64,000 bases of DNA from Acidimicrobiales bacterium (GCA_965116865.1 OZ220727.1:1604798-1668797); one strand, 5' to 3'; positions 378 through 59,135 are shown, counted from the stretch's first letter. The notes: generated from the sequence alone by a model not told the origin. Made by a program: numbers and translations.

Positions 378-560
378 CCATCGCTCGAGCCCGTGCGGCC
401 CATCTCACCGGCCGACACCTGCAGCGACGTCGACCGAGCAGCCGCGCGGACCATCGCTCGAGCCCGTGCGGCCCATCTCACCGGCCGACACCTGCAGCGA
501 CGTCGACCGAGCAGCCGCGCGGACCATCGCTCGAGCCCGTGCGGCCCATCCGCTCGGCCT
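378..560. repeat. 73-bp tandem duplication, about 2.5 copies
   Basis: The unit ccatcgctcgagcccgtgcggcccatctcaccggccgacacctgcagcgacgtcgaccgagcagccgcgcgga starts at 378, 451 and 524. It is intergenic, between the 560..1414 gene stop and the pepA start. Confidence 0.9.
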
Positions 561-1414
561 CAGGGGGCGAGCAGGATGCGGGCCACCAGGTCCTGGCCGA
601 AGGCGGTGACGACGGCCAGGTACACGAGCCCGGTGGCGGCCATCACCGCGGAGTACTGGCGCTCGCGCAGCGCGGCCCTCGCCGCCGCCACCAGCAGGAC
701 GGTCATGGCCGCCGAGGCGACCCAGAACCAGCCGAGCAGGCCGTTGTAGCCGTCGTCGATGGTGCCGTCCAGCACCGAGACCATGCCGGTGGGCCACAGC
801 ATCGCCACCGTCTCGGGCAGCCACAGCACCGCGGCCGCCCGCAGCATCTCCAGCAGCGGCCCACGGGCCAGGCCGGGCTGCACCAGGTACCAGTGGCCCA
901 GCAGCATGGCGTTCACCACAGCTCCGATGAACAGCGCCCCCACCAGGGTCCGGACCACGGCCAGCCCCGCCGGCCCGCCGGCTGACAGCGCCCCCAGCAG
1001 AACAGCACCTGAGCCGGCCGCCGCCGCGATCAGATCCAGCACCGGCGGGAACTCGGGCGCATCGGGATCGAAGCGCGTGTCGGCCCGGTCGATGCCGGTC
1101 ATCTCGGCCACCCGGGCCGACCGGCGCGCCCCGTCGGCCCGCTGCCCGGCCACGCCCGCGGACCGGCGCGCCACCGAGACCGCTCCCGCGACCAGGCCAG
1201 CACAGGCGAAGACCGTGGTGGCCGCCTCGCGGCTCCAGGTCGGCTCGGCCAGCAGGGCAGTCGCCAGAGAGCCTCCGGCCAGCGCCAGGAACACTCCCCT
1301 CAACAGCCATCCGTAGCCGAGCCCGACCTCGCGGCGGCGGGTGGTGACCCACAGGAAGAACCACCCGCCCGCGGCCCAGCCCACCAGCAGCGTGGCGGCG
1401 TCGAACTCGACCAT
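560..1414 (-). CDS. hypothetical integral membrane protein
   Basis: 284-aa ORF with several hydrophobic helices (LLVGWAAGGWFFLWV, GAVLLGALSAGGPAGLAVV, LLGWFWVASAAMTVLLVAAA). I do not recognise a family. Confidence 0.6.
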   Translation of the reverse strand: MVEFDAATLLVGWAAGGWFFLWVTTRRREVGLGYGWLLRGVFLALAGGSLATALLAEPTWSREAATTVFACAGLVAGAVSVARRSAGVAGQRADGARRSARVAEMTGIDRADTRFDPDAPEFPPVLDLIAAAAGSGAVLLGALSAGGPAGLAVVRTLVGALFIGAVVNAMLLGHWYLVQPGLARGPLLEMLRAAAVLWLPETVAMLWPTGMVSVLDGTIDDGYNGLLGWFWVASAAMTVLLVAAARAALRERQYSAVMAATGLVYLAVVTAFGQDLVARILLAP

Positions 1415-1435
1415 TACGTTGGACCGCGTTGTCTC

Positions 1436-2593
1436 TCAGGCAACGACGGCGAGGCGGTGGTCGGCAAGGTTCAGGGGATCGGGACACGTCGGCGACGCGA
1501 CCACGATGTCCTCCAGGCGTGCCCCCCAACGACCGGGCACATAGATCCCCGGCTCGACAGAGAAGGCGTTGCCGGCCACCAGCGGCCGGTCGTTGCCCTC
1601 CACGATGTAGGGATCCTCGTGGGCCTCGGTTCCGATCCCGTGGCCGGTGCGATGAATGAAGTACTCGCCGTAGCCCGCGGCCGTGATGGTCGACCGTGCC
1701 GCCCGGTCCACGTCCTGGGCGGGCGTGCCCGCCGCGGCTGCGGCCACACCGGCAGCCTGAGCCTCGAACAGGGCCTCGTAGAGTTCGCCGAACTCGGCCG
1801 GCGGCTCGCCGGTGTACACGCAGCGGGTGATGTCGGAGCAGTACCCCACACCGTCGTCGCCCACCATCGTGCCGCCGAAGTCGCACAGCACGACCTCGTC
1901 CGTGCCGATCACTCTGCCGCCGGGCTCGTGATGGGGACTGGCCGCGTTGGCGCCGGCCGCCACGATGGCGAAATTCACCCGGTCGTGGCCCTCAGCCACG
2001 ATCTGGCGGCCCAGTTCAGTCGAAACCTCGGCCTCGGTCTGCCCCACCAACTCGATCTCGCCCCGCTGGAGCCGGCCCGCGATCCGGTCGACCGCGGCGC
2101 CCGCTGCCCGCAGGCGTTCGATCTCCTCCGCGGTCTTGACCGAGCGGATCGGGGCGGTCACATCCGAGCCCCGGCGCCACACGGCACCCGGCATAGCCAC
2201 CATCAACTCCACCAGGAACCGCGACCACATGTGGTCCCCGACTGCGACCACGGCCGCCGATCGGACCAGGCCGGCCACGACGGCTACCGGGTTCTCGCCC
2301 TCATCCCAGGGCCTGACCCCGAACACGTCGGGCCGCTCGCGCACCCTGGGCGCCTCCAGGCGGGGCACGACCAGGACGGCCGCGTCGTCGCGGGGCACGA
2401 CCAGCATGGTGAGCCGCTCCAGCGGCATGGCCTCGTATCCGCAGAAGTACGGCAGGTCCGCTCCGACCGAGAGCATGAGCACGTCGACGCCCTGGGTGGC
2501 CATGAGCGCCCGGGCCCGGTGCAGCCGGTCTGCGAACACGCAGTCAGCGTAGAACCCCGCGCAGCACGCGACGAGCCGGCAGTCCTGGGCCAC
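1436..2593 (-). CDS. M24 family metallopeptidase (Xaa-Pro aminopeptidase/dipeptidase-like)
   Basis: 385-aa ORF with the pita-bread metal-ligand motifs CDFGG..GYCSDITR, HRTGHGIGTEAHEDP and GNAFSVEPGIY. Confidence 0.85.
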   Translation of the reverse strand: MAQDCRLVACCAGFYADCVFADRLHRARALMATQGVDVLMLSVGADLPYFCGYEAMPLERLTMLVVPRDDAAVLVVPRLEAPRVRERPDVFGVRPWDEGENPVAVVAGLVRSAAVVAVGDHMWSRFLVELMVAMPGAVWRRGSDVTAPIRSVKTAEEIERLRAAGAAVDRIAGRLQRGEIELVGQTEAEVSTELGRQIVAEGHDRVNFAIVAAGANAASPHHEPGGRVIGTDEVVLCDFGGTMVGDDGVGYCSDITRCVYTGEPPAEFGELYEALFEAQAAGVAAAAAGTPAQDVDRAARSTITAAGYGEYFIHRTGHGIGTEAHEDPYIVEGNDRPLVAGNAFSVEPGIYVPGRWGARLEDIVVASPTCPDPLNLADHRLAVVA

Positions 2594-2602
2594 TCACTGC
2601 AT

Positions 2603-3019
2603 TCAGGCCGCCCGGGCGTCTCCGTCAGCCTCCGACCCTCCGTGTCGGGGCGGCGGAGTGATGCCGAGGCGGCCCTCGATCCGGGCGAGCCGCTCACGCG
2701 CGTCCGCGAGGCTGCCGCTGATCTCCGCGTGACTCGCCGTGATGAGGTCGCGCAGCTGCCTGTTGGACGCCTCAATCAGGTCGCGGTTCTTCTCGATCAG
2801 GCAGCGGTTCTCTCTGCTGGACTCCTCGATCAGGCGGCGGTTCTCTCTGCTGGACTCCTCGATCAGGCGGCGGTTCTCTCTGCTGGACTCCTCGATCATG
2901 CCGCGGGTCTTGGTGCTGTCGAGATGCTGGTACCGCATCGACGCAGCCACGAAGACCAGCATCGGCCCCAGCACCGCAGCGAGGATCGGGGCCAGGCCCG
3001 ACAGTGCAATCGTCTCCAT
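2603..3019 (-). CDS. small membrane-anchored coiled-coil protein with an in-frame 11-aa x3 repeat; paralog of 10150..10584
   Basis: N-terminal TM helix (LAPILAAVLGPMLVFVAA). IEESSRENRRL occurs three times, encoded by a 33-bp tandem repeat at about 2792-2890. The C-terminal motif ERLARIEGRLGI is shared with the 10150 ORF. Confidence 0.6.
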   Translation of the reverse strand: METIALSGLAPILAAVLGPMLVFVAASMRYQHLDSTKTRGMIEESSRENRRLIEESSRENRRLIEESSRENRCLIEKNRDLIEASNRQLRDLITASHAEISGSLADARERLARIEGRLGITPPPRHGGSEADGDARAA

Positions 3020-3031
3020 GGCTCAACATTA
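3020..3031 (-). promoter_or_regulatory. possible -10 element (TAATGT) 6 nt upstream of the ATG; leaderless-type start
   Basis: The reverse strand reads GGTCAGGTAATGTtgagccATG, inside a locally AT-rich stretch (3020-3100) of a 70% GC window. Confidence 0.3.
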
Positions 3032-3102
3032 CCTGACCACAAGACATGAGAAAACCTCAAATGCAGTTGTTTTTGTCAATTGTCTCGCAAAGGGTGCCCG
3101 TG

Positions 3103-58125: not shown

Positions 58126-58168
58126 GTCGAGTGAGCATCCAAGGCCTCTCACCCCCAGTCCTCTGTCT

Positions 58169-58465
58169 CTGACAGGAAGCGCGGCGCGTTCACGATCCTG
58201 GCGCTGCCGGTGGCCCATTCGGGTTCACCGCCCGGGGAGGCCTGACAGGAAGCACGGCGCGTTCACGATCCTGGCGCGCTGCGCCGAGGACGCGGGGCAG
58301 CAGACTCTCGACGCTGACAGGAAGCGCGGCGCGTTCACGATCCTGGCGCGCTGCGCCGAGGACGCGGGGCAGCAGACTCTCGACGCTGACAGGAAGCGCG
58401 GCGCGTTCACGATCCTGGCGCGCTGCGCCGAGGACGCGGGGCAGCAGACTCTCGACGCTGACAGG
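58169..58465. repeat. 72/73-bp tandem repeat x4 (array 2)
   Basis: ctgacaggaagc.cggcgcgttcacgatcctggcgc... starts at 58169, 58242, 58314, 58386 and 58458. Confidence 0.9.
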
Positions 58466-58466
58466 C

Positions 58467-58670
58467 GCGAGCGTGGAGCGGGCACACACAAAACCATCGA
58501 AACAGCGAATGGTCCGACGCGGCCGCCGCGAGCGTGGAGCGGGCACCGATGTACGCCACCGCGGCCAGGGCGGCGGTGCGGCGGCCGCGTGCGTGGGGCG
58601 GGCACACAACTTCGGCGCGATCCCCACCGCAGGCCGCTGGCGGCAGCCGCGGGCGTGGGGCGGGCACGGT
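58467..58670. repeat. about 60-bp diverged tandem repeat x3.5 (array 3)
   Basis: gcg.gcgtgg.gcgggcac starts at 58467, 58528, 58587 and 58649. Confidence 0.75.
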
Positions 58671-58815
58671 CATCGGGCAGGATCCGCGGATCGCGTCGCC
58701 GCGTGGGAAGTCGACGTCGGGGGCGGCGCGGCGGGCCGGGTCGGGCCGCGCGCTGGGGGGTCGCCGACGAGTTGGGACGCAGTTCGCCCTCCGGTGAGCG
58801 TGTCGGTGAGCCGCT

Positions 58816-58925
58816 GGGGCGCAGCGCTGATGGAGGCCGACACACAGCGCGTCGGGGTCTCGTCGAGGGTGTAGCCCACCGCCAGCCGGGGCGCAGCGCT
58901 GATGGAGGCCGACACACAGCGCGTC
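58816..58925. repeat. 72-bp direct duplication (array 4)
   Basis: ggggcgcagcgctgatggaggccgacacacagcgcgtc occurs at 58816 and 58888. Confidence 0.9.
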
Positions 58926-58961
58926 CGCATCGACAACGACACATGCCGCACGCTCCGACGC

Positions 58962-59135
58962 AAACAGGACGGCTCTCAAGGCAAGACGGTCGACAGCTTC
59001 GACCACGCCCCCGCGTTGTACCCCGACGTGATCAAACAGGACGGCTCTCAAGGCAAGACGGTCGACAGCTTCGACCACGCCCCCGCGTTGTACCCCGACG
59101 TGATCAAACAGGACGGCTCTCAGGGCAAGACGGTC
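58962..59135. repeat. 72-bp tandem repeat x2.4 (array 5)
   Basis: aaacaggacggctctcaaggcaagacggtcgacagcttcgaccacgcccccgcgttgtaccccgacgtgatc starts at 58962, 59034 and 59106. Confidence 0.9.

Follow-up and report, generated by a model that had tools for sequence, protein, structure and literature searches.

The DNA considered here, 64,000 nucleotides from the genome of an Acidimicrobiales bacterium (GCA_965116865.1 OZ220727.1:1604798-1668797; referred to in its entirety as the window), raises the question of how sequences with no resemblance to each other came to be repeated in tandem, locus after locus, with a period of close to 72 bp. In silico analysis of the window, coupled with that of related loci (given L numbers; ±10 kb each, approximately 1.8 Mb in total), established that the arrays are scars, in which an insert from elsewhere lies between two copies of a short target. 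Off-target integration by a Cas1-Cas2 spacer integrase of a CRISPR system, operating with a repeat ruler of 35-37 bp and followed by slippage to give the arrays of 2.5 copies, is the explanation that we favour, with somewhat better than even confidence.

Periodicity and anatomy of the arrays

When the window was searched with Tandem Repeats Finder (TRF) and by gapless self-comparison at every offset, all 16 loci listed in an initial annotation of this DNA were recovered to within a few bases, and four further loci were found at 8668-8773 (period 71), 8843-8948 (72), 34511-34623 (74, then 92 x 3) and 50350-50446 (71/72), giving a total of approximately 20 scars in the 64-kb window. The enrichment exceeds chance: when exact matches of 24 nt or longer were counted, the self-comparison of the window returned 2 at offset 71, 13 at 72 and 3 at 73, as compared to 0 at offsets 67-70 and 74-77. 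The repeat spectrum of the window is dominated by 71-73 bp, and the neighbouring sizes are empty of exact repeats. In the window and 82 related loci taken together, 41 of the 100 'clean' repeat pairs at offsets 45-110 have an offset of 71-73.

The arrays take the form A-B-A (approximately 1.5 copies) or A-B-A-B-A (approximately 2.5 copies), where A and B each span approximately 36 nt, and the length of the self-match is 34-39 nt, or 34-39 nt plus a multiple of 72. In contrast, ordinary tandem duplications in the same window, such as those of 65 bp x 2.1 (51742), 114 bp x 2.1 (40843), 297 bp x 2.1 (36208) and 139 bp x 3 (26012), are present in approximately 2.0-2.1 or 3.0 copies; the scars are not plain tandem duplications. 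Comparison of all A and B segments confirmed that neither A nor B is related from one locus to the next, and BLAST, in which A matched its orthologues alone and B had no match, upheld the earlier statement that the units do not constitute a dispersed family. The view of a fixed-length process that has acted at unrelated sites, repeatedly over time, has likewise stood.

For 29 clean events the mean length of A was 36.4 nt (variance 2.0), that of B 35.8 nt (variance 2.6) and that of the period 72.1 (variance 0.55), with a correlation of -0.89 between the lengths of A and B. These statistics are reproduced by a model that combines a fixed duplication of 35-36 bp with an insert of 36-37 bp and chance matches at the junctions, a variance of A at least as large as that observed being obtained in 13% of simulations. 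Insert and duplication are thus both of fixed length, as if set by two rulers, with some outlying splits and a bias in parity left unexplained. The seven helical turns with which the period had initially been equated are not needed, as two stretches of approximately 36 bp each add up to 72 bp. Certain arrays hold more than one insert: at 58169-58465 the first B differs from the next three, while the array at L034:4364-4760 has the inserts S1 S1 S2 S2 S3 between copies of one A. Such multi-insert arrays have the geometry of repeats and spacers, but the 'repeat' is a different one at every locus.

Empty sites, donor DNA and distribution

Four candidate ancestors of each event (flank+A+flank, and the corresponding forms with AB, BA or ABA) were aligned to the other loci, and the alignments were also inspected by eye. 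Twelve events could be compared with relatives or with a paralogue; ten of these revealed a single A without B, one was ambiguous and one proved to be a different element. The single-A ancestor gave the best alignment, in most cases gapless, for L006:2783, L006:7926, L006:534, L053:12760, L070:14967 and L015:12932, and for 8668 and 11465 in the window. One A and no B are carried by L057, L003 and L005 at the site corresponding to 8668, by L057, L004 and L005 at that corresponding to 11465, and by the window paralogue P0002 at that corresponding to 41668. The flanks of L053 and L052 are near-identical, with 2 mismatches over the approximately 170 flank positions displayed in the alignment, and nothing larger separates the two there apart from a 71-bp B+A insertion in L053. 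Since the empty sites hold a single A and no B, each founding event consists of the insertion of approximately 36 bp of non-local DNA together with the duplication of approximately 36 bp of the target.

The same target may be struck more than once. The region 8781-9140 contains approximately 340 bp that are extra as compared to L057, L006 and L003, and the epimerase gene start, present four times in this region, points to successive events at a single target. Very close to the intergenic position of 8668 in the window, L006 has an A-B-A of independent origin, with a different B and with A shifted by 5-8 nt. At 15079 the relatives carry one A, and the origin of B is ambiguous, its start weakly resembling native downstream sequence of the relatives. 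For 56766-59140, a metagenome scan with flavin reductase yielded relatives at 84-85% identity only, whose intergenic DNA is too diverged to provide empty sites.

Some candidates were rejected as scars. L057:21485, at first scored as an event, is a repetitive extragenic palindromic (REP)-like hairpin element (GAAYTGGCAGC ... GCTGCCAAYTC), which is found at approximately 285-340 in the window and at L057:21440-21590, L014:21540-21600 and L083:3476-3760; its copies lie on the downstream side of genes, in some cases as tandem repeats with a 71-bp period, and mimic an A-B-A event. L016:7173/7799 represents palindromic dispersed elements of approximately 48 nt (TTTTCTGAGCAAAAA...TGCTCAGAAAA), which flank a small gene on both sides (L016:7140-7400 and 7790-7980) and are unrelated to the 72-bp class.

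With regard to the donor, orthologous counterparts in relatives are present for A segments and there are none for B segments. BLAST of every A and B covered the window and L001-L082, and B gave no match in the window and relatives beyond chance matches of 15-20 nt; a donor locus was not recovered for any B in the window and the fetched loci. The B at 58816 is, judging by its sequence, a fragment of a carB gene: although the locus is non-coding, translation of the reverse complement gives the CarB motif LAVGYTLDET, with G+C at 100% of the third codon positions; the codon usage of this B is host-like, and 26/27 nt agree with annotated Escherichia coli carB. In the region of the conserved CarB motif, agreement at 26/26 and 26/27 nt was also obtained with two records classed as phage, and as the matched site encodes CarB these records are probably bacterial contamination. 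The carB gene is absent from all fetched loci. Approximately half of the B segments display three-base periodicity resembling that of coding sequences (CDSs), although most of them lie in non-coding DNA; the B at 56766 is coding-like, with 100% GC at one codon phase, and for the B at 41668 the best coding frame is antisense to the host gene. Concatenated B segments compared with phage and plasmid collections yielded the carB match only, in addition to borderline matches (E about 0.4) to Ig-like and glycosyltransferase genes. B and the host do not differ in G+C content, which suggests that the donor was the host chromosome or some DNA of like composition. The claim of the initial annotation that each locus has duplicated its own DNA is therefore correct for the A half, which is local, and incorrect for the B half, which is absent from empty sites and in one case appears to be a piece of carB.

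Scars were also identified in L006, L015, L017, L034, L053 and L070; these relatives belong to two or more families and derive from SPAdes, MEGAHIT and long-read assemblies, and scars thus occur in some related sponge-symbiont Acidimicrobiia. Many relatives, including congeners, lack them, the best-studied eight being L003, L004, L009, L010, L012, L013, L021 and L022. Of the scarred loci, L006 belongs to VYBO01, L034 to OZ219783, L053 to JAJEIJ01 and L070 to OZ241836, whereas OZ242033, OZ241894 and OZ244836 are among the relatives that are free of scars. The scars are patchy among relatives, congeners included, and a lineage-specific pattern of this kind is in keeping with a system that is carried sporadically. 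Within the window, scars are found between genes, at the ends and at the starts of genes and, in the form of 72-bp in-frame inserts, inside genes. At 8781-9140, 15079 and 27242 the duplication has kept a gene start intact, while in-frame inserts occupy tolerant protein regions at 11465 (RNase H) and 41668, the latter array encoding VEVLPPGVQDS followed by LDLVAGGDDLRDA, 2.5 times over. The earlier observation that events in CDSs are exactly 72 bp in length holds for the three that can be placed in a CDS (11465, 41668 and L006:2783), and the placeable events of 71 and 73 bp lie in intergenic DNA or at gene ends, in agreement with the proposed filtering of outcomes by selection on the reading frame.

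Proposed off-target spacer integration and its rivals

To our knowledge, Cas1-Cas2 is the only enzyme that pairs a fixed insert of approximately 30-40 bp with a fixed target duplication of approximately 25-37 bp, and it is for this reason that the scars are ascribed here to off-target spacer integration. The integrase would cut the chromosome with a stagger of approximately 35-36 bp, a pre-measured fragment of approximately 36-37 bp from elsewhere (B) would be joined into the staggered cut, and gap repair would duplicate the target (A) to yield A-B-A; the canonical repeat of the system would measure approximately 35-37 bp and its spacers approximately 35-38 bp. A 36/36 geometry fits arrays of type I-G/I-U, I-D or III. 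Replication slippage or unequal recombination would subsequently act on the two copies of A, so that an event may be deleted or expanded to A-B-A-B-A with identical B, and a second integration into a copy of A would generate arrays with different inserts (58169-58465, L034:4364-4760 and 8781-9140). Gene-breaking insertions would be purged by selection, the survivors being intergenic, at gene ends or, as 72-bp in-frame inserts, in tolerant regions. The arrays with different inserts at one target (58169-58465 and L034) count for an integrase, as do the independent hits of the window and L006 at one intergenic spot for off-target Cas1-Cas2 integration as a whole. The expansion of A-B-A to A-B-A-B-A is most simply attributed to slippage or unequal exchange between copies of A; duplications of repeat-spacer segments have been reported in genuine CRISPR arrays (bioRxiv 10.1101/2022.05.19.492656) and the genome is rich in perfect tandem duplications. 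Among the three mechanisms offered by the initial annotation, staggered breaks and fill-in is the closest, in that A acts as a target-site duplication of approximately 36 bp; protein-templated slippage leaves the imported sequence unexplained.

Precedents for such an activity exist. Off-target integration by Cas1-Cas2 is reported to spawn new arrays in E. coli (Nivala et al. 2018, via 10.1101/148544, PMC11788318, PMC6698737), and off-target integration at non-CRISPR sites has been observed in vitro (PMC6698737). The off-target integration literature calls the evidence for natural occurrence circumstantial, in two species, with its frequency unclear. In addition, CRISPR-Cas genes are reported to be enriched in symbiotic Aldehydirespiratoraceae (PMC11706023). 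The neo-CRISPR of Nivala, Shipman & Church (2018) resembles the scars in having an insert of spacer length outside arrays, a target duplication of repeat length and an array that can be extended; it differs in that it derives from an over-expressed type I-E integrase of E. coli, with a 28-bp duplication, a 33-bp spacer and rare events, whereas the window presents approximately 36 + 36 bp, approximately 20 fixed events per 64 kb, no detectable motif and frequently duplicated identical inserts. CRISPR arrays with repeats of 35-37 bp (I-G/I-U, I-D, III) share with the scars a period of approximately 72-73 bp, spacers that vary by 1-2 bp and the occasional duplication of a unit, but the scars depart from canonical CRISPR in that the 'repeat' differs at each locus, the repeats number 2-5, and neither cas genes nor a leader are nearby. 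No Rfam CRISPR-DR family match was obtained among the scars, and a naive CRISPR-array finder run on all loci identified only scar mini-arrays and coding repeats, with no canonical array.

A number of observations argue against off-target Cas1-Cas2 integration. No cas1 or cas2 gene and no canonical CRISPR array is present in the window or in the approximately 1.8 Mb of fetched loci, viral contigs scanned with exact or wobble-degenerate B patterns gave 0 matches, and there is no hairpin excess in A or B (z-scores of approximately 0). An orientation-aware search detected no junction motif (8.2 bits, as compared to 6.8-8.2 in shuffles), and published off-target sites resemble the leader-repeat junction; a weak resemblance of the target sites to the canonical repeat is possible. 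Approximately 20 events in 64 kb is a density far above that of any Cas1-Cas2 report, and duplicated inserts of identical sequence occur far more often here than they do in ordinary CRISPR arrays. Furthermore, the period is more constant than A or B, and a simple two-ruler model predicts neither the outliers, which have splits of 45/26 (window 23569), 28/44 (L070:3699) and 24/47 (L070:16291) with periods still of 71-72, nor the parity bias, in which A is of even length (34, 36 or 38) in 15 of the 16 period-72 events of the window and of relatives (post hoc, about 6e-4). Together, the outliers, this bias and the near-constant period would allow for a process that adds a fixed increment.

Such a process, not of the CRISPR kind, would capture and insert DNA so as to add a fixed increment of approximately 72 bp, for example as single-stranded DNA or complementary DNA (cDNA) of fixed length, part of it from elsewhere and part from the target, via template switching or annealing; we consider it unlikely. 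It would accommodate the period as the tightest invariant (variance 0.55, as compared to 2.0 for A and 2.6 for B), the retention of periods of 71-72 by the three outlying splits, the parity bias in A length, and the failure to find a target motif of the integrase kind, while at 23569 a duplication of 36 bp would need 9 nt of identity between insert end and flank, which looks like annealing. However, we know of no process that adds a fixed increment of approximately 72 bp by capture, fixed lengths with chance matches at the junctions account for most of the A/B statistics, and different inserts at one target fit an integrase better. As for the outliers, a background of approximately 0.2 unrelated pairs per offset leads to an expectation of approximately 0.6 at 71-73, against which three are only mildly excessive. 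That a non-CRISPR system new to science adds a fixed increment of approximately 72 bp, made up of imported DNA and a target copy of variable length, at essentially sequence-independent sites in several sponge-symbiotic Acidimicrobiia lineages is likewise unlikely in our view.

Plain tandem duplication of native DNA, the principal reading of the initial annotation, is very improbable, whether it is put down to replication slippage or to nicks staggered by seven helical turns. Local units that are unrelated from locus to locus, the many ordinary perfect tandem duplications of the genome and the weak likeness of the B start at 15079 to native downstream sequence of relatives would all be compatible with duplication, but B is missing from the empty site in 10 of the 12 testable events, the copy number is 1.5 or 2.5 as compared to 2.0-2.1 for ordinary duplications in the window, and one B has the appearance of a carB fragment. 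As the founding event plain duplication is contradicted, and it survives only as the secondary step by which A-B-A would become A-B-A-B-A. Mycobacterial interspersed repetitive units (MIRU), variable number tandem repeats (VNTR) and minisatellites are similarly short arrays, often intergenic, with units of 50-80 bp and a copy number that changes by slippage; MIRU is, however, one dispersed family with a consensus and VNTR units are native, whereas the units of the window are unrelated and half imported.

Even more remote is an origin from an excising mobile element with a target-site duplication of approximately 36 bp, or from dispersed remnants of the MIRU, REP or miniature inverted-repeat transposable element (MITE) kind. 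The A copies do behave as a target-site duplication, and L057:21485 did prove to be a REP-like hairpin element, but all B segments differ from one another, all A segments likewise, and terminal inverted repeats are lacking; Rfam returned nothing at gathering thresholds for the whole window, nor at E-values up to 5 for 57900-60600. The suggested footprint of an excised element is excluded, as the B segments are all different. Casposons and other transposons with long target-site duplications also owe these to staggered strand transfer, by a Cas1-family or DDE integrase, but their duplications are approximately 14-15 bp or shorter and flank a defined element, while the insert in the window is an arbitrary 36-bp fragment. 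Hardly credible at all is an assembly or consensus artefact, for although 2.5-copy arrays are seen in long-read assemblies only, and L119, the one other contig over part of the window, is 100% identical but from the same sample and so not independent, A-B-A occurs in independent SPAdes and MEGAHIT short-read metagenome-assembled genomes (MAGs) as well as in long-read MAGs of different species, the copies carry substitutions, in-frame events are kept in coding sequences, and events are polymorphic between near-identical genomes (L053 vs L052).

Genomic setting and significance of the scars

The scars of the window are collected in Table 1, together with two loci of a possible minor class.

Table 1. 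Arrays of the window; lengths in nt or bp, with strand in brackets after gene coordinates.
Position	Architecture	Period (A/B)	Context
369..550	A-B-A-B-A, copies 100% identical	73 (36/37)	directly downstream of stop of gene 560-1435(-)
8668..8773	A-B-A	71 (35/36)	intergenic
8781..9140	serial insertions; start-codon motif RTGCRYGYAGCCGYSACC x4 at 8781, 8843, 8915, 9122; A-B-A at 8843-8948, A-B-A-B-A at 8930-9107	72; 72	epimerase gene start
10568..10676	A-B-A	73 (36/37)	between convergent gene ends
10733..10915	A-B-A-B-A, 100% identical	73 (37/36)	intergenic
11465..11574	A-B-A, in frame	72 (38/34)	N-terminal extension of RNase H gene 10998-11582(-)
15079..15260	A-B-A-B-A	72 (38/34)	ribosome-binding site and start codon of lipoprotein gene duplicated
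23569..23684	A-B-A, atypical split	71 (45/26)	just past stop of Phd/YefM antitoxin gene
27242..27501	composite array, 2.5 copies; A holds sufS ATG	73 + 32 = 105 (37/36)	sufC/sufS junction
29562..29669	A-B-A	72 (36/36)	downstream of UvrD-like helicase gene
29802..29899	A-B-A, older and diverged, weak	72	3' end of helicase gene
34511..34860	composite A-B, then three 92-bp units (A + 18 nt native flank + B)	(39/35)	between convergent genes
41668..41845	A-B-A-B-A, in frame	72 (34/38)	lipoprotein gene 41083-42210(-)
50350..50446	A-B-A with 1-nt indel	71/72	near 5' end of paralogous lipoprotein gene
56766..56873	A-B-A	72 (36/36)	immediately upstream of sufB
58012..58121	A-B-A	72 (38/34)	A is remnant of gene intact in L083-L085
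58169..58465	A-B1-A-B2-A-B2-A-B2-(A truncated)	73/72/72/72	
58816..58925	A-B-A	72 (38/34)	non-coding DNA
58961..59140	A-B-A-B-A	72 (36/36)	non-coding DNA
33264..33352	possible minor class, A-B-A	61 (28/33)	
58466..58700	possible minor class, four ~28-nt repeats with unique ~33-nt spacers	61-62	

Repeats of 28-32 nt with a period of 60-62 bp, as A-B-A or mini-arrays, are also present at L010:9886, L017:12870 and L070:15720, and the 61-bp class (28 + 33; 33264 and 58466-58700) may, on thin evidence, represent a second and rarer type of scar, left by a type I-E-like integrase. Perfect ordinary tandem duplications occur at 51742-51877, 40843-41076, 26012-26431, 36208-36832, 49942-50117 and 16030-16147, with units of 65, 114, 139, 297, 36 and 18 bp in approximately 2.0-2.1, 3.0 or more copies, and the genome seems to be generally prone to tandem duplication. 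The 2.5 kb at 57960-60500 are without a credible gene and hold seven arrays and what is left of a gene still intact in relatives L083-L085; this appears to be a decaying region tolerant of insertions.

The window, with a G+C content of 66-73%, is core chromosomal DNA that encodes pyruvate dehydrogenase and lipoate genes, pstSCAB-phoU, ilv genes, two suf clusters, in which sufB contains an intein, and two giant subtilase/FN3/cadherin proteins. A plasmid or phage origin was rejected, as 36000-60000 gave sufB-level matches only when compared with plasmid and phage collections. AceE of the window shares 92-93% identity with that of 'Candidatus Aldehydirespirator' MAGs (sponge-associated Acidimicrobiales), the source contig, from ENA sample ERZ25072196, measures 3,324,494 bp, and a Joint Genome Institute (JGI) metagenome and a Logan run hold proteins identical to those of the window. 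SufB (54122-56779, minus strand; 885 aa) carries its intein (Hint_2 and a LAGLIDADG_3 homing-endonuclease domain) within the SUFBD core, and a single open reading frame at 3103-5001 (minus strand) unites a LipB-like lipoyl transferase domain with lipoyl synthase (Radical SAM, LIAS_N) in an apparent lipB-lipA fusion. A duplicated gene pair at 36851-42210 and 42416-50306 comprises the giant subtilase/FN3/cadherin protein (1478 and 2025 aa) and a paralogous lipoprotein (P0001 and P0002, 64% identity); proline-rich coding repeats of 61-64 bp lie at 48372-49146 and 40843-41076.

The scar of a spacer-integrating enzyme outside its array is hardly ever seen in nature; off-target integration is known from experiments in E. 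coli, and its natural accumulation on this scale appears to be undescribed. If Cas1-Cas2 is responsible, no earlier natural genome would have shown a visible build-up of off-target spacer integrations, and the density in the window would make hundreds of scars possible in the 3.3-Mb genome. The scars would then provide direct natural material on the birth of CRISPR arrays, would render the self-inflicted mutational cost of adaptation measurable (gene insertions, duplicated starts and an apparently carB-derived insert), and, as a collection of integration sites, would permit the integrase's intrinsic target rules to be deduced, while CRISPR finders and tandem-repeat typing would mis-score such loci. 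If Cas1-Cas2 is not responsible, still greater interest would attach to a novel enzyme that measures with two rulers of 36 bp.

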